Counted from the stretch's first letter, positions 1,866 through 37,091 are shown. The stretch: DNA of 37,091 bases from a virus (IMGVR_UViG_2700989362_000003), one strand, 5' to 3'. Made by a program: numbers and translations. Notes: generated from the letters alone by a model not told the origin.

Positions 1866-5546
<3,681 letters not shown>

Positions 5547-5566
<20 letters not shown>

Positions 5567-6866
5567 TCTCCCGCATATTGCCAGCATGGCTTTTAATGAG
5601 CCGCTGATGCTTGAACCCGCCTATGCGCGGGTTTTCTTTTGTGCGCTTGCAGGCCAGCTTGGGATCAGCTGCCTGACGGATGCAGTATCCGGCGACAGCC
5701 TGACTGCCGGAGAGGCACCCGCGGCGCTGGCGTTATCCGGTGATGATGACGGACCACGACAGGCCCGCAGTTATCAGGTAATGAACGGCATCGCCGTGCT
5801 GCCGGTGTCCGGCACGCTGGTCAGCCGGACGCGGGCGCTGCAGCCGTACTCGGGGATGACCGGTTACAACGGCATTATCGCCCGTCTGCAACAGGCTGCC
5901 AGCGACCCGATGGTGGACGGCATTCTGCTCGATATGGACACACCGGGCGGAATGGTGGCGGGAGCATTTGACTGCGCTGACATCATCGCCCGTGTGCGTG
6001 ACATAAAGCCGGTATGGGCGCTGGCCAATGACATGAACTGCAGCGCAGGTCAGCTGCTTGCCAGTGCCGCCTCCCGGCGTCTGGTCACGCAGACCGCCCG
6101 GACAGGCTCCATCGGCGTCATGATGGCTCACAGTAATTACGGCGCTGCACTGGAGAAACAGGGCGTGGAAATCACGCTGATTTACAGCGGCAGCCATAAG
6201 GTGGATGGCAACCCCTACAGCCATCTACCGGATGATGTCCGGGAAACATTGCAGTCCCGGATGGATGCAACCCGCCGGATGTTTGCACAGAAGGTGTCGG
6301 CATATACCGGCCTGTCCGTGCAGGCTGTGCTGGATACCGAGGCTGCAGTGTACAGCGGTCAGGAGGCCATTGATGCCGGACTGGCTGATGAACTTGTTAA
6401 CAGTACCGATGCGATCACCGTCATGCGTGATGCACTGGATGCACGTAAATCCCGTCTCTCAGGAGGGCGAATGACCAAAGAGACTCAATCAACAACTGTT
6501 TCAGCCACTGCTTCGCAGGCTGACGTTACTGGCGTGGTGCAAGCGACGGAGGGCGAGAACGCCAGCGCGGCGCAGCCGGACGTGAACGCGCAGATCACCG
6601 CAGCGGTTGCGGCAGAAAACAGTCGCATTATGGGGATCCTCAACTGTGAGGAGGCTCACGGACGCGAAGAACAGGCACGCGTGCTGGCCGAAACCCCCGG
6701 TATGACCGTGGAAACGGCCCGCCGTATTCTGGCCGCAGCACCACAGAGTGCACAGACGCGCAGTGACACTGCGCTGGATCGTCTGATGCAGGGGGCACCG
6801 GCACCGCTGGCTGCAGGTAACCCGGCATCTGATGCCGTTAACGATTTGCTGAACACACCAGTGTAA
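5547..6866 (+). CDS. C: capsid maturation protease gpC (S49/ClpP-like)
   Basis: The ORF track starts this frame at 5412. Lambda C starts at a GTG that overlaps the B stop, here 5547..5549, giving VTAELRNLPHIASMAFNEPLMLEPAYARV... and 439 aa. Confidence 0.85.
6261..6866 (+). CDS. nu3: scaffolding protein gpNu3 (internal in-frame start within C)
   Basis: In-frame ATG at 6261 (MDATRRMFAQKV...) sharing the C stop at 6866, at the lambda Nu3 position. Nested-gene arrangement is known from lambda. Confidence 0.7.
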   Translation: MDATRRMFAQKVSAYTGLSVQAVLDTEAAVYSGQEAIDAGLADELVNSTDAITVMRDALDARKSRLSGGRMTKETQSTTVSATASQADVTGVVQATEGENASAAQPDVNAQITAAVAAENSRIMGILNCEEAHGREEQARVLAETPGMTVETARRILAAAPQSAQTRSDTALDRLMQGAPAPLAAGNPASDAVNDLLNTPV

Positions 6867-6875
6867 GGGATGTTT

Positions 6876-7208
6876 ATGACGAGCAAAGAAACCTTTACCC
6901 ATTACCAGCCGCTGGGCAATAGTGACCCGGCTCATACCGCAACCGCGCCCGGCGGATTGAGTGCGAAAGCGCCTGCAATGACCCCGCTGATGCTGGACAC
7001 CTCCACCCGTAAGCTGGTTGCGTGGGATGGCACCACCGACGGTGCTGCCGTTGGCATTCTTGCGGTTGCTGCTGACCAGACCAGCACCACACTGACGTTC
7101 TACAAGTCCGGCACGTTCCGTTATGAGGATGTGCTCTGGCCGGAGGCTGCCAGCGACGAGACGAAAAAACGGACCGTGTTTGCCGGAACGGCAATCAGCA
7201 TCGTTTAA
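6876..7208 (+). CDS. D: head decoration protein gpD
   Basis: [27 protein letters not shown]...AISIV, 110 aa. The track ORF starts 2 codons upstream at 6870. Confidence 0.9.
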
Positions 7209-7263: not shown

Positions 7264-8289
7264 ATGTCGATGTACACAACCGCCCAGCTGCTGGCGGCAA
7301 ATGAGCAGAAATTTAAGTTTGATCCGCTGTTTCTGCGTCTCTTTTTCCGTGAGAGCTATCCCTTCACTACGGAGAAAGTCTATCTCTCACAAATTCCGGG
7401 ACTGGTAAACATGGCGCTGTACGTTTCGCCGATTGTTTCCGGTGAGGTTATCCGTTCCCGTGGCGGCTCCACCTCTGAATTTACGCCGGGATATGTCAAA
7501 CCCAAGCATGAGGTGAATCCGCAGATGACCCTGCGTCGCCTGCCGGATGAAGATCCGCAGAATCTGGCGGACCCGGCTTACCGCCGCCGTCGCATCATCA
7601 TGCAGAACATGCGTGACGAAGAGCTGGCCATTGCTCAGGTCGAAGAGATGCAGGCAGTTTCTGCCGTGCTCAAGGGCAAATACACCATGACCGGTGAAGC
7701 CTTCGATCCGGTTGAGGTGGATATGGGCCGCAGTGCGGCGAACAACATCACACAGTCCGGCGTCACGGAGTGGAGCAAGCGTGACAAGTCCACGTATGAC
7801 CCGACCGACGATATCGAAGCCTACGCGCTGAACGCCAGCGGTGTGGTGAATATCATCGTGTTTGACCCGAAAGGCTGGGCGCTGTTCCGTTCCTTCAAAG
7901 CCGTCAAGGAGAAGCTGGATACCCGTCGCGGCTCTCATTCCGAGCTGGAGACAGCGGTAAAAGACCTGGGCAAAGCGGTGTCCTATAAGGGAATGTATGG
8001 CGATGTGGCCATCGTCGTGTATTCCGGACAGTACGTGGAAAACGGCGTCAAAAAGAACTTCCTGCCGGACAACACGATGGTGCTGGGGAACACTCAGGCT
8101 CGCGGTCTGCGCACCTATGGCTGCATTCAGGATGCGGACGCACAGCGCGAAGGCATTAACGCTTCTGCCCGTTACCCGAAAAACTGGGTGACCACCGGCG
8201 ATCCGGCGCGTGAGTTCACCATGATTCAGTCAGCACCGCTGATGCTGCTGGCTGATCCTGATGAGTTCGTGTCCGTTCAACTGGCGTAA
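7264..8289 (+). CDS. E: major capsid protein gpE
   Basis: MSMYTTAQLLAANEQKFKFDPLFLRLFFRESYPFTTEKVYLSQIPGL..., 341 aa. The track ORF starts 9 codons upstream at 7237. Confidence 0.95.
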   Translation: MSMYTTAQLLAANEQKFKFDPLFLRLFFRESYPFTTEKVYLSQIPGLVNMALYVSPIVSGEVIRSRGGSTSEFTPGYVKPKHEVNPQMTLRRLPDEDPQNLADPAYRRRRIIMQNMRDEELAIAQVEEMQAVSAVLKGKYTMTGEAFDPVEVDMGRSAANNITQSGVTEWSKRDKSTYDPTDDIEAYALNASGVVNIIVFDPKGWALFRSFKAVKEKLDTRRGSHSELETAVKDLGKAVSYKGMYGDVAIVVYSGQYVENGVKKNFLPDNTMVLGNTQARGLRTYGCIQDADAQREGINASARYPKNWVTTGDPAREFTMIQSAPLMLLADPDEFVSVQLA

Positions 8290-32517: not shown

Positions 32518-32615
32518 CGGTTTCATCGTGGGTGTCGGTTATAAATTCTGATTAGCCAGGTAACACAGTGTTATGACAGCCCGCCGGTTCAGGCGGGCTT
32601 TTTTGTGGGGTGAAT

Positions 32616-35600
32616 ATGGCAGTAAAGATTTCAGGTGTACTGAAAGACGGCACAGGAAAACCGGTACAGAACTGCACAATCCAGCTGAAAGCAAAACGTA
32701 ACAGCACCACGGTGGTGGTGAACACGCTGGCCTCAGAAAATCCGGATGAAGCCGGGCGTTACAGCATGGACGTTGAGTACGGTCAGTACAGCGTTATTCT
32801 GTTGGTGGAAGGATTCCCGCCGTCACATGCCGGGACCATCACCGTGTATGAAGATTCCCGACCCGGTACGCTGAATGATTTTCTCGGTGCCATGACGGAG
32901 GATGATGCCCGTCCGGAGGCACTGCGCCGTTTTGAGCTGATGGTGGAAGAGGTGGCGCGTAACGCGTCCGCGGTGGCACAGAACACGGCAGCCGCGAAGA
33001 AATCAGCCAGCGATGCCAGCACATCAGCCCGTGAGGCGGCAACCCATGCGACTGATGCTGCAGATTCAGCACGTGCAGCCAGCACGTCAGCCGGACAGGC
33101 CGCTTCGTCGGCTCAGTCAGCGTCTTCCAGCGCAGGAACGGCATCAACAAAGGCCACTGAAGCCTCAAAAAGTGCTGCCGCTGCAGAGTCCTCAAAAAGC
33201 GCGGCGGCTACCAGTGCCGGTGCGGCGAAAACGTTAGAAACGAATGCGGCAGCGTCACAACAATCAGCAGCCACTTCTGCATCCACCGCGACCACGAAAG
33301 CGTCAGAAGCTGCCACCTCAGCCCGGGATGCGTCGGCTTCAAAAGAGGCGGCAAAATCATCAGAAACGAACGCATCATCAAGCGCCAGTAGCGCAGCTTC
33401 CTCGGCGACGGCGGCTGCAAATTCTGCGAAGGCGGCCAAAACGTCCGAGACGAACGCCAGGTCTTCTGAAACGGCAGCGGGACAGAGTGCCTCAGCTGCG
33501 GCAGGCTCAAAAACAGCGGCTGCGTCGTCTGCCAGCGCCGCGTCAACAAGTGCCGGGCAGGCCTCAGCCAGTGCCACCGCCGCCGGAAAATCGGCAGAAA
33601 GCGCCGCATCATCCGCTTCAACAGCCACAACGAAGGCTGGCGAAGCCACTGAGCAGGCCACGGCAGCAGCGAGGTCAGCTTCCGCAGCGAAGACATCCGA
33701 AACGAACGCGAAAGCGTCGGAAACCCGTGCAGAATCCTCAAAAACGGCTGCCGCATCGTCCGCCAGTTCGGCGGCGTCATCGGCATCATCGGCGTCTGCT
33801 TCAAAAGATGAGGCGACCAGACAGGCGTCAGCAGCGAAGGGCAGCGCCACGACGGCATCCACGAAGGCGACAGAGGCTGCTGGTAGTGCGACGGCAGCAG
33901 CTCAGAGCAAAAGTACGGCGGAATCTGCAGCAACGCGCGCTGAGACAGCGGCAAAACGGGCAGAGGATATTGCATCCGCCGTGGCGCTTGAGGATGCGAG
34001 CACGACGAAAAAGGGGATAGTACAGCTCAGTAGTGCGACTAACAGCACTTCCGAGTCACTGGCGGCAACACCAAAAGCCGTTAAGGCCGCGTATGACCTG
34101 GCTAACGGGAAATACACCGCACAGGATGCAACGACAGCACAGAAAGGGATAATCCAGCTAAGCAGCGCGACCAACAGCACGTCTGAAACGCTGGCGGCAA
34201 CGCCAAAGGCAGTAAAAGCAGCCAATGACAATGCTGAGAAACGTCTGCAGAAAGATCAGAACGGTGCGGATATCCCTGGCAAAGACACCTTTACGAAAAA
34301 TATTGGTGCCTGCCGTGCCTTCGGTGGGTCAGTAAGCACAACAACAGGAAACTGGACGACTGCACAGTTTATCGAGTGGCTGGATTCTCAGGGAGCATTT
34401 AACCATCCATACTGGATGTGCAAGGGTTCCTGGTCTTATGGCAATAATAAAATCATTACTGATACTGGCTGCGGTAATATTCATCTCGCCGGAGCTGTCA
34501 TTGAAGTAATGGGGATAAAGTCAGCGATGACGATCCGCATTACCACTCCGACCACATCCAGCGGTGGCGGAACAACCAACGCCCAGTTTACCTATATTAA
34601 TCACGGAACAGATTATTCACCTGGCTGGCGAAGGGACTATAACTCCAGAAATAAGCCAACGGCATCAGAGATCGGGGCGCTACCGTCAGGTGGAACAGCA
34701 GTATCATCAGTTAATCTGGCTTCAAAAGGTCGGGTAGCCGCGCTGACAGACAATACGCAGGGGGCAGCAGGTCTTGAGTTATACGAGGTGTATAACAACG
34801 GATATCCAACAGCGTATGGAAATATCATTCACCTGAAAGGGATGACAGCCGTTGGCGAAGGTGAGTTACTCATCGGCTGGGGGGGGACAAGCGGGGCTCA
34901 TGCTCCGGCATTTATTCGTTCACGACGGGATACGACCGACGCAAACTGGTCGCCGTGGGCGCAGCTTTACACCTCGGCTCATCCTCCTGCAGAGTTTTAT
35001 CCAGTCGGTGCACCAATCCCGTGGCCATCAGATACCGTTCCGTCTGGTTATGCCCTGATGCAGGGGCAGACTTTTGACAAATCTGCTTACCCGAAACTTG
35101 CAGCCGCTTATCCGTCAGGCGTGATCCCTGATATGCGTGGCTGGACGATTAAGGGCAAGCCCGCCAGTGGTCGTGCCGTATTGTCTCAGGAACAGGATGG
35201 CATTAAATCGCACACCCACAGCGCCAGCGCATCCAGTACGGATTTGGGGACGAAAACCACATCGTCGTTTGATTACGGCACTAAATCCACGAATAACACC
35301 GGGGCGCATACGCACAGTCTGAGCGGCTCTACAAGTTCAGCTGGGGCCCACCAACATAGTCAGACTGGGCCCAGAACGAATAGCGGGAGTCAACCTACTG
35401 GAATGTTTCCGGCAGGGAGTACTCAAGTTAGCGGGACTAATCAGGTTGGTATCAGTGGCTCATTAACCAGTGGCACCTCCCAATGGGTAGGTAAATCATC
35501 TTCAGAAGGAAACCATACACACTCACTGTCCGGCACAGCAGCATCTGCGGGTGCACACGCGCATACTGTCGGTATTGGTGCTCATACGCACTCTGTTGCG

Positions 35601-35699
35601 ATTGGTTCACATGGACACACCATCACCGTTAACGCTGCTGGTAACGCGGAAAACACCGTCAAAAACATCGCATTTAACTATATTGTGAGGCTCGCATAA
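32616..35699 (+). CDS. stf: side tail fiber protein Stf, about 1027 aa
   Basis: Lambda-type Stf N-terminus, then a long Ala/Ser/Thr-rich low-complexity shaft, two copies of the tail-fiber repeat KGI(V/I)[11 protein letters not shown](S/T)[11 protein letters not shown], a roughly 300-aa Cys-containing central domain ([10 protein letters not shown]...WMCKGSW...[10 protein letters not shown]...), and a C-terminal tip with multiple HxH motifs ending ...[11 protein letters not shown]. The track ORF starts at an upstream GTG (32610). Confidence 0.9.
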
Positions 35700-36280
35700 T
35701 GGCATTCAGAATGAGTGAACAAGCACGGACCATAAAAATTTATAACCTGCTGGCCGGAACTAATGAATTTATTGGTGAAGGTGACGCATATATTCCGCCT
35801 CATACAGGTCTGCCTGCAAACAGTACCGATATTGCACCGCCAGATATTCCGGCTGGTTTCGTGGCTGTTTTCAACAGTGATGAGTCATCGTGGCATCTCG
35901 TTGAAGATCATCGGGGTAAAACGGTTTATGACGTGGCTTCCGGCGACGCGTTATTTATTTCTGAACTCGGCTCATTACCGGAAAATGTCACCTGGTTATC
36001 CCCGGAAGGGGAGTTTCAGAAGTGGAACGGCACAGCCTGGGTGAAGGATACGGAAGCAGAAAAACTGTTCCGGATCCGGGAGGCGGAAGAAACAAAAAAC
36101 AGCCTGATGCAGGTAGCCAGTGAGCATATAGCGCCGCTTCAGGATGCTGTGGATCTGGAGATCGCAACGGAGAAAGAAACCTTGTTGCTGGAAGCTTGGA
36201 AAAAGTATCGGGTGTTGCTGAACCGTGTTGATACATCAACTGCACCGGATATTGAATGGCCAGTAGCACCTATAGGGTAA
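35699..36280 (+). CDS. tfa: tail fiber assembly chaperone Tfa
   Basis: 193-aa [57 protein letters not shown]..., overlapping the stf stop in a TAATG arrangement. Near-identical to lambda Tfa as I recall it. Confidence 0.9.
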
Positions 36281-36363
36281 ATTCGTAATGATTACCTAAA
36301 TACGTTATTCTTTTGTTAAAAAAGTGATTTTGCTATAGGTAGGGAGTATGTTCTTGGATTAAG

Positions 36364-36397
36364 AATAAAAAATCGCCATGAAAGAGCTTCATGGCGA
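36364..36397 (-). terminator. candidate intrinsic terminator for a minus-strand transcript
   Basis: Perfect 10-bp inverted repeat TCGCCATGAA AGAGC TTCATGGCGA (36373..36397) preceded on the plus strand by AATAAAAAA, so on the minus strand it is a hairpin followed by a U-run. Confidence 0.45.
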
Positions 36398-36545
36398 GTA
36401 CATAAACGTACAAAATGTGATGAAAGTAGAGTGGCGTAAGCCACTATATTAAGATATGACAATAGCGAAGAAAAGTAAATAACATTTTATGGACGTTTAA
36501 TTGTTAATTATAAAAACTAGAGTGCCCGATATTGTTTATCTTGCT

Positions 36546-36647
36546 TTAAAATAATGTACTCAAACCAAATTTTTGAGCTAAAAGCTCAAATAATATAAAT
36601 GCAATAATAATGTTTAATAAGACAATTAGCTTGCTTTGTATTTTCAT
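36546..36647 (-). CDS. candidate small hydrophobic protein, 33 aa (MKIQSKLIVLLNIIIAFILFELLAQKFGLSTLF)
   Basis: Hand-translated minus-strand ORF, below the 60-aa cutoff of the ORF track. Single predicted transmembrane helix. About 150 nt upstream (in transcript sense) of the minus-strand terminator. No obvious Shine-Dalgarno, and AT-rich DNA can produce such ORFs by chance. Confidence 0.3.
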   Translation of the reverse strand: MKIQSKLIVLLNIIIAFILFELLAQKFGLSTLF

Positions 36648-37029
36648 TTCGGAATACTGTTAAGTAACTTTGATGACCCTAACAATAGATCGGAATTTTC
36701 TTAGAGTCAATGGTCACTGTTTTTGCTTGCAAAGCAAATGTTTTGGTGGTTATAAGTCGTCTTAATATAGTCACGCATGCAACTTGTTCCATGCGGAGAT
36801 TAAAGATTGGAATATAACGCGAAGATGGAATTAAATTACATTTGCAATAATTAATTTATTATTACTCAATAATTACCGATATTATTATTGTAAATTAATC
36901 ATTAGAATGCAAAAAGAAATGTAACGGCAAAATAAGAGGACGATAGCTGAGAAAAAAGCGTGCTTTCCCAATCTGGGGCAAATCACGTCTGAATGACACC
37001 TGAAAACAGGTGGTAGCCTCAAGAAGGCT

Positions 37030-37091
37030 GGTGATGCTGCCAACTTACTGATTTAGTGTATGATGGTGTTTTTGAGGTGCTCCAGTGGCTT
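37030..37091 (+). mobile_element. IS1 left end (terminal inverted repeat plus first 62 bp), running off the window
   Basis: GGTGATGCTGCCAACTTACTGATTTAGTGTATGATGGTGTTTTTGAGGTGCTCCAGTGGCTT matches the IS1 left end, including the start of insA (GTGGCTT...), as I recall it. Confidence 0.8.

Follow-up and report, generated by a model that had tools for sequence, protein, structure and literature searches.

A Probable 33-Codon YncL-like Membrane Protein Gene in AT-Rich Cargo behind the tfa Gene of Lambdoid Prophages

The viral DNA IMGVR_UViG_2700989362_000003 was analyzed as one stretch of 37,091 nt, which is referred to here as the window. Toward the end of the window, a tract of 749 bp (positions 36281-37029) lies between the tail fiber assembly gene tfa of a lambdoid tail module and the left end of an IS1 element, and this tract and a 33-codon open reading frame (ORF) on its minus strand are the subject of this work. 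In a preliminary description made from the DNA alone, the interval between tfa and IS1 was said to lack any ORF of 60 codons or more on either strand and to differ sharply in base composition from the prophage. Both statements are borne out. The longest ORFs found by scanning the two strands of the tract encode 52 and 48 amino acids, and the fraction of G and C (GC) falls at 36281 from ~0.5 to 0.28-0.35 in the tract, with 0.28-0.30 in the module that adjoins tfa (Table 1), compared with 0.46-0.63 in the tail genes. The hydrophobic peptide of 33 residues that had been pointed out at 36647..36546 was recovered by the ORF scan and translates as MKIQSKLIVLLNIIIAFILFELLAQKFGLSTLF. Because the tract holds 11 ORFs of 22-52 amino acids, this ORF is unremarkable by itself, and to that extent the earlier caution that AT-rich DNA yields Ile/Leu/Phe/Lys-rich ORFs by chance is justified. 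The caution does not extend to the substitution pattern of the ORF or to its homology with the Escherichia coli protein YncL, both of which exceed chance, as does the fold at the 3'-end of the predicted transcript (z = -5.7). The counts of promoter- and terminator-like sites do not; they are no higher in the tract than in shuffled sequence.

Copies of the ORF from E. coli loci, IMG/VR viral contigs, and metagenomes (n = 81) were compared. At the DNA level they form three lineages, namely, the main lineage, one that is ~94% identical, and one that is ~79% identical. All 81 copies are intact and exactly 33 codons in length, with four protein variants among them; the preliminary description had named a lack of conservation in related prophages as grounds for abandoning the peptide, and the peptide is conserved. 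Between the main and 79% lineages there are 18 substitutions within the ORF, distributed 7:1:10 over codon positions 1, 2, and 3. Eleven are synonymous and seven are non-synonymous, five residues are changed, and the ratio of non-synonymous to synonymous change (pN/pS) is 0.16. The comparison of the main and 94% lineages provided five synonymous changes and one non-synonymous change (pN/pS = 0.05). When the same base changes were placed again at random within the ORF, five or fewer amino-acid changes were obtained with P = 1.3e-4 for the 79% lineage, and the corresponding simulation for the 94% lineage gave P = 0.02. Read in the other five frames, this segment has stops and 9-15 amino-acid changes. 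No insertion or deletion (indel) appears in the 99 coding nucleotides, compared with ~12 events in ~400 flanking nucleotides, one of which is a 5-nt deletion immediately past the stop codon. The gene is intact even at locus L007, a prophage remnant that is otherwise reduced to pseudogenes. Judged by this pattern of change, the 33-codon ORF is a real gene under purifying selection.

Every other ORF of the tract fails the same comparison because the start codon is lost, a premature stop appears, or all changes are non-synonymous. On the minus strand, the 37-residue ORF at 36792..36679 is annotated in phage PhiR70_1; its ATG is replaced by ACG in the sister lineages, and a stop codon falls within it in the 79% lineage. 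The 48-residue ORF at 36462..36316 is interrupted by stops in both sister lineages. On the plus strand, all four changes in the 24-residue ORF at 36378..36452 are non-synonymous, and in the 79% lineage an indel affects the beginning of the 35-residue ORF at 36710..36817.

A single match was obtained when the 33-residue protein was scanned against NCBIfam. This match is to YncL (NF000537, "stress response membrane protein") with E = 1.3e-5 and 25.0 bits over profile positions 1-28 of 30. Two natural variants match the same family with 23.5 and 22.5 bits, and no NCBIfam match was found for six shuffled peptides (6/6) or for two other ORFs of the tract. YncL from E. coli K-12 (b4598), a validated small membrane protein, has the sequence MNVSSRTVVLINFFAAVGLFTLISMRFGWFI and is 31 amino acids in length, and its gene is located between patD and ortT. 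BLASTP against this protein gave 11/28 identities, gapless from Met1, with E = 2e-7; by our own count, the Citrobacter orthologs of YncL share 13/28 identities. The ungapped BLOSUM62 score is 60-67, compared with 20 ± 4 for shuffled sequences, and none of 5000 shuffles reaches it. Profile-profile comparison with hhalign provided a probability of 93.7% and E = 1.9e-7. Since the shuffled controls are negative, a compositional artifact is excluded. The two groups share ten invariant positions (M1, S5, L10, N12, A16, L19, F20, L22, F27, and G28). A single helix is predicted by AlphaFold2 for residues 2-26, with a predicted local distance difference test score (pLDDT) of 86, and the most hydrophobic 19-residue window spans residues 7-25 in the phage protein and in YncL alike. 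By full-length similarity beyond composition, the phage protein is homologous to YncL. It is classed as a divergent YncL-like paralog and not as YncL itself, because the score is below 35 bits, the C-terminal residues are different, and the gene lies elsewhere than between patD and ortT.

Other database searches with the 33-residue protein returned little. No Pfam toxin or other Pfam family was matched at E ≤ 10, and no meaningful match to PHROGs or PADLOC was obtained. Of ~15 billion predicted proteins, only three records contain the protein, all of them unnamed, and a phmmer search of 1.84 billion representatives returned the peptide itself and one frameshift variant and nothing else. A tblastn search of the phage collection with the peptide gave no match; as the DNA itself occurs there, the low-complexity filter is the probable cause. 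When species-representative genomes and metagenomes were scanned with degenerate family patterns, only chromosomal yncL (of E. coli and the Citrobacter freundii complex) and the three phage-type lineages already described were detected. A looser pattern provided one doubtful ORF, MKKAITLILMNIISALFLFFLIIQNFGFWGHE, at 3446-3544 (+) of a low-GC IMG/VR contig (L122). This ORF matches the NCBIfam YncL model with E = 0.03, and the evidence is circular because the ORF was found with a family-derived pattern. In the literature library searched, no paper contains the peptide string, and the four that name both yncL and a prophage are unrelated, with none linking yncL to a prophage gene. The features of the region are collected in Table 1.

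Table 1. Features at the right-hand end of the window
Feature	Position	Strand	Remarks
Side tail fiber gene	32610-35699		part of the lambdoid tail module at the window end; annotated as tail fiber protein in near-identical loci
tfa, tail fiber assembly	35699..36280	+	left neighbor of the cargo module; name from annotation of near-identical loci
Post-tfa cargo module (proposed "moron")	36281..36858	-	ends at 36826 in one lineage
Intrinsic terminator	36363..36397	-	stem 36373-36397, 10 perfect pairs (11 with G-U); U-rich tail 36363-36372
3'-untranslated region	36398..36545	-	proximal half 36481-36545 poorly conserved and indel-rich
Hairpin SL1	36430-36445	-	in the distal 3'-untranslated region, beside a conserved single-stranded linker (18 nt)
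yncL-like gene	36546..36647	-	33 codons and TAA stop; single predicted transmembrane helix
Putative sigma-70 promoter	36682..36710	-	TTGACT-17 bp-TATTGT; consensus match only, 9/12
Second conserved non-coding block	36754..36803	.	90-93% identical to the 79% lineage; contains repeat arm 36760-36784
attLambda-type-specific piece	36859-36944		second of the three pieces of the mosaic tract
Right-end sequence of serU-integrating lambdoid prophages (start)	36945..37029	.	cut by IS1 in the window
IS1 left end	37030..37091	+	left inverted repeat begins at 37030; window ends within the element

Among 5426 complete E. coli genomes surveyed for the tract, 280 have it over its full 749 bp and 1343 have parts of it, always on the chromosome. 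The core unit, from 36281 to approximately 36858, occurs at 942 places in 828 genomes (~15%). The Prokaryotic Genome Annotation Pipeline (PGAP) annotated nothing under any of the ~175 matches listed. The phage collection contains matches in 4 of 50,697 records, and the lambdoid phages mEp332, PhiR70_1, and ev099 carry the tract, with the module of mEp332 being identical. Two other small ORFs were chosen by the annotators of these phages, and the 33-codon ORF was passed over. The module is always found directly after the tfa stop codon, with different cargo downstream. Its carriers are prophages at three or more integration sites, among them attLambda/bio, ydfJ (the Qin site, L006), and a site beside sitABCD that adjoins an icd gene fragment and ymgL (L008), and the copy in the decayed remnant L007 is 79-80% identical. 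By its position and base composition, the module is a foreign unit that moves with tfa. Decayed fragments of the 3'-end of tfa appear after each AT-rich cargo block that lies downstream of the intact tfa, at 5592-5687 and ~6340-6445 of L006 and at 5546-5645 of L007. The 3'-end of tfa seems, from these arrangements, to act as a recombination joint for stacking cargo modules.

Units of this type in phage genomes are called morons, a term reportedly defined by Hendrix and colleagues; examples are bor and lom of lambda and gp15 of HK97, and some inner-membrane morons exclude incoming phage DNA. Morons are recognized by deviant GC, by presence in some relatives and absence in others at a fixed position, and by a terminator and promoter of their own. 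The GC of the module is deviant and its occurrence at the fixed position is variable. Its terminator is clear and conserved, and its promoter is a 9/12 match of a kind found at chance frequency. The module resembles morons as an extra unit between or after conserved phage genes, with its own terminator and a putative promoter, in a cargo hot spot behind the tail fiber genes, and it would encode a membrane protein that probably acts in the lysogen. It differs from them in that the product is much smaller and that its expression and phenotype are predictions.

The predicted transcript is ~310 nt in length and consists of a 28-nt leader, the ORF, a 148-nt 3'-untranslated region (UTR), and a terminator. 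The perfect 10-bp hairpin with a U-run that was noted earlier on the minus strand proves to be a well-conserved element, and it follows the stop codon at a distance of 148 nt, in agreement with the ~150 nt first given. Its orientation is that of the minus strand, since on the plus strand the hairpin lacks a U-run after it. The run of six U residues is at 36372-36367, and in two of the three lineages the tail is interrupted (UUUCUU). With 4-5 variable columns of 35, the terminator is the least variable element of the module. Identity to the 79% lineage is 93-97% for 36371-36450, which comprises SL1, the 18-nt linker, a small hairpin, and the terminator; the corresponding values are 50-63% for the proximal 3' UTR, ~80% for the ORF, and 90-93% for the non-coding block at 36754-36803. 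Two independent changes in SL1 retain pairing only as G-U in the minus-sense RNA.

At the 5'-end, the putative promoter would start the transcript near 36675, leaving a 5' UTR of ~28 nt with no Shine-Dalgarno sequence after it. The 79% lineage has TTGACT-17-TATCGT at this position, with the -35 box and the spacing retained, and the 94% lineage has TTAACT. No convincing match to a sigma-70, sigma-32, sigma-E, or CRP site was seen by eye in 36754-36803 as an alternative promoter. A scan of 35500-37091 against Rfam at E ≤ 1 provided only a match inside tfa (IS009) and none in the tract.

The palindromes reported earlier at 36431-36444 and 36572-36590 are both present. The latter was rejected as a conserved structure because it is not retained in the 79% lineage, and two one-sided changes there identify it as a by-product of the codons for FELLAQK. 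A further hairpin at 36727-36745 is not conserved and was likewise set aside.

An inverted repeat that flanks the gene is formed by the two non-coding blocks with the highest conservation in the module. The arm at 36760-36784 is complementary to 36430-36454 at 19 of 25 positions, with a perfect 12-mer, and this repeat is the only complement of at least 11 nt to the 3' element in the whole window. In a hypothetical transcript from 36800 to 36363, the arms form a long-range helix around the ORF in both the minimum-free-energy and the centroid folds. Changes in the repeat arms are one-sided, with no compensatory changes and no covariation. The best sense promoter lies inside the repeat and would leave the 5' arm out of the transcript.

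Previously, YncL was found to be induced by heat shock and in minimal medium, and its production was demonstrated to depolarize the membrane and condense the nucleoid; the protein is described as a stress-response protein active at native levels and not as the toxin of a toxin-antitoxin system (PMC12542507). YncL is a substrate of RseP in vivo (PMC10470546). In Salmonella, the yncL transcript was first catalogued as the small RNA (sRNA) STnc1110 and is sigma-S dependent (PMC5437024). A study based on RNA interaction by ligation and sequencing (RIL-seq) also lists the yncL mRNA among the partners of KilS, which is an sRNA derived from the 3' UTR of kilR in the Rac prophage (PMC8175672). The phage protein is similar to YncL in size (33 and 31 amino acids, respectively) and in having one predicted transmembrane helix at residues 7-25, and the two genes share a short monocistronic transcript ending in a terminator, which for the phage gene is a prediction. 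The proteins differ at the C-terminus, which is GLSTLF in the phage protein and GWFI or GWFA in YncL, and near the N-terminus, where K2 and Q4 of the phage protein replace N2 and S4. The phage gene has no Shine-Dalgarno sequence, whereas yncL has AAAGGTGG; it also has a long 3' UTR, and it is located behind tfa in an AT-rich prophage cargo module that is present in only ~15% of E. coli genomes.

Taken together, the conserved peptide, the purifying selection, and the homology to YncL support the small-membrane-protein locus that was among the options first proposed. The segment 36281-36858 is probably a self-contained AT-rich unit of prophage cargo that encodes an unannotated 33-residue YncL-like membrane protein. 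The module would be transcribed leftward, opposite to the tail fiber operon and immediately downstream of tfa, most likely from the putative promoter in Table 1, through the ORF and the 148-nt 3' UTR, to the intrinsic terminator. This terminator would also keep leftward (antisense) transcription out of the late tail genes. Expression from the module's own promoter in the lysogen is expected, and the product would be a single-pass inner-membrane protein, a divergent paralog of the chromosomal stress microprotein YncL. By analogy, it may enter the lysogen's cytoplasmic membrane and, as YncL does, lower membrane potential and metabolic activity in a dose-dependent manner with mild depolarization. 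The effect could be an altered stress physiology of the host or possibly a change in phage entry. The protein may instead serve the phage in a specific role, for instance by keeping out incoming phage DNA in the manner of other inner-membrane morons.

Several observations weigh against this assignment. Only three lineages exist, so that the selection tests rest on ~24 substitutions. Nucleotide conservation of the ORF (~80%) does not exceed that of its flanks and is below that of the 3'-end. The NCBIfam score, 25 bits, does not reach the equivalog cutoff of 35 bits curated for the YncL family. The promoter is a 9/12 match in DNA where such matches occur by chance, and inspection upstream of the ATG at 36647 revealed no Shine-Dalgarno match, in agreement with the first impression that a clear ribosome-binding site is lacking. 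Finally, one frameshift variant of the ORF is public. This protein (P0002, from Logan assemblies) has an extra nucleotide (+1) in the A-run of codons 25-26, which yields a 43-residue product with a new C-terminus, and it is the sole disrupted allele seen.

A different product, RNA, would carry all or part of the function of the module if its ~90-nt 3'-end (SL1, the 18-nt linker, the small hairpin, the terminator, and the U-tail) were an sRNA, either independent or derived from the 3' UTR, with the ORF secondary or part of a dual-function transcript. The anatomy is suitable: the 3'-end is the best-conserved part of the transcript by the identities given above, its fold is well-defined, and the SL1 variants pair only in the minus-sense RNA. 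The changes in the overlapping plus-strand ORF of 24 residues, which are non-synonymous without exception, indicate that conservation acts here on nucleotides and not on a plus-strand peptide. The history of the Salmonella yncL transcript, which entered the catalogue as an sRNA (PMC5437024), is a further parallel, and the short transcript with conserved terminator-proximal stem-loops is similar to 3' UTR-derived Hfq-dependent sRNAs and coding sRNAs such as STnc1110 (yncL) and STnc1330 (yohP) of Salmonella. Unlike those, however, the phage element belongs to no Rfam family even at E ≤ 1, and two lineages have an imperfect U-tail. Every occurrence of the element is accompanied by the ORF (827 and 828 genomes, respectively), and the prophage offers no target complementarity of at least 11 nt apart from the repeat within the module. 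Because there are only three lineages, the conservation peak could also be a recombination tract. Moreover, selection at the protein level would be left unexplained. An sRNA locus was among the earlier suggestions; the 3'-end has the anatomy of an sRNA but matches no Rfam family, and an RNA as the product or as part of it is considered unlikely.

A type I toxin-antitoxin system, in which a membrane toxin is held in check by an antisense or divergent sRNA, by a hok-like fold-back of the 5'- and 3'-ends of the mRNA, or by both, is less probable still. The size and hydrophobicity of the peptide fit, since Hok/Gef, Ldr, Ibs, ShoB, TisB, DinQ, and ZorO are also small hydrophobic single helices, and the homolog YncL likewise lowers membrane potential when produced (PMC12542507). 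A promoter-like site on the plus strand at 36456-36485 would drive antisense transcription across the ORF, and the repeat that brackets the ORF (19/25, with 12 nt perfect) could supply the fold-back through the long-range helix of the hypothetical 36800-36363 transcript. However, the phage protein has no sequence relation to those toxin families, and neither a Pfam toxin at E ≤ 10 nor a PADLOC entry was matched. The antisense unit has no plus-strand terminator, promoter-like sites are present at chance counts, and no RNA antitoxin was found; direct repeats of at least 13 nt that could give a divergent complementary sRNA are absent from the region scanned. A transcript from the best sense promoter would lack the 5' arm of the repeat, and the changes in the repeat are one-sided and without covariation. 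YncL itself is described as acting at native levels as a stress-response protein and not as a toxin of this class (PMC12542507). The likeness to type I toxins drawn in the preliminary description, with neither a Pfam match nor a bounded antisense unit detected, found no support in the tests applied.

Improbable to a similar degree is an active device of phage-host conflict, in the form of either a superinfection-exclusion or abortive-infection microprotein tied genetically to a particular tail fiber/tfa cassette or a hok-like addiction toxin silenced by the pairing of 36760-36784 with 36430-36454. If such a device were present, chromosomal YncL would belong to a wider family of membrane-depolarizing microproteins recruited by phages.

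The weakest alternative, already disfavored and very improbable, is a chance ORF in an AT-rich non-coding (H-NS-type) spacer or in decayed cargo left by IS1, with the terminator closing a lost leftward gene: the wealth of small Ile/Leu/Phe/Lys-rich ORFs in such DNA (11 in the tract), the absence of a Shine-Dalgarno sequence, the silence of PGAP at the ~175 matches listed, the choice of other, non-conserved ORFs by phage annotators, and the origin of the right-hand tract as a prophage-end remnant with an IS1-linked deletion agree with it, but the synonymous bias and the lack of indels are specific to this one frame, the homology to YncL is significant with negative shuffled controls, the other ORFs of the tract lose their starts or gain stops in sister lineages, and IS1 lies 383 bp from the ORF in a module that is identical in IS1-free relatives.

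With a YncL-like membrane protein as the probable product, "ORF-free" AT-rich DNA behind lambdoid tail fiber genes can be a place for functional microproteins carried as cargo. Annotation systematically overlooks small membrane proteins, and this one occurs in ~15% of complete E. coli genomes. YncL, whose role is still unclear, would gain a mobile paralog whose sequence points to the positions that the family cannot change. The natural presence/absence polymorphism and the viable carrier phages mEp332, PhiR70_1, and ev099 could be used for genetics. The practical use lies in small-protein annotation and in the study of YncL function, and no new type of system is proposed.

The right-hand end of the tract has a separate history. 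The window contains the start of the right-end sequence of serU-integrating lambdoid prophages, and in the IS1-free locus L001 this piece runs into the 3' 62 nt of the tRNA-Ser(CGA) gene serU and on through at least 170 nt of chromosomal DNA that flanks serU. The L001 prophage is located at the lambda attachment site beside ybhB-bioA. Positions 6860-6921 to ~7090 of L001 are the attR junction of another integration site, captured by this attLambda/bio prophage, and a serU piece in an attLambda prophage points to an old aberrant excision or recombination event. Past the counterpart of the 749-bp tract, the non-coding DNA of L001 extends for another 756 bp to a gene for a YdeO/GadX-like AraC-family regulator. 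This gene (7506-8249, +), the next one of the cargo, encodes 247 amino acids and scores 149 bits with the YdeO model, which is below the cutoff, and it is preceded by ~1.5 kb without an annotated gene.

The IS1 junction at 37030 is common to 79 complete genomes. The flanks of IS1 at 6750-7517 of L002 (strain 2009C-3133) lie 560 bp apart in the IS1-free relative, which indicates an IS1-adjacent deletion of ~560 bp that removed the serU fragment and not a simple insertion. In L002, 206 bp separate the end of IS1 from the AraC-type gene downstream of it. The proposal that the tract is a remnant of cargo disrupted by IS1 thus applies to the right-hand 85 bp (36945-37029) and not to the unit that contains the ORF, which is intact.

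Two minor observations were made in the neighboring tail genes. The Rfam family IS009 (RF02111) matches 36042-36240 (+) with 218 bits and E = 8e-55, wholly within the coding 3'-end of tfa, and this "RNA family" may simply be the conserved sequence of the 3'-end of tfa. The side tail fiber gene contains, at 33000-34050 (+), a long low-complexity stretch rich in Ala, Ser, and Thr, with a GC of ~0.6 and an AT skew of up to 0.43, and spurious long ORFs appear in its other frames, such as one of 258 amino acids at 33244..34020.

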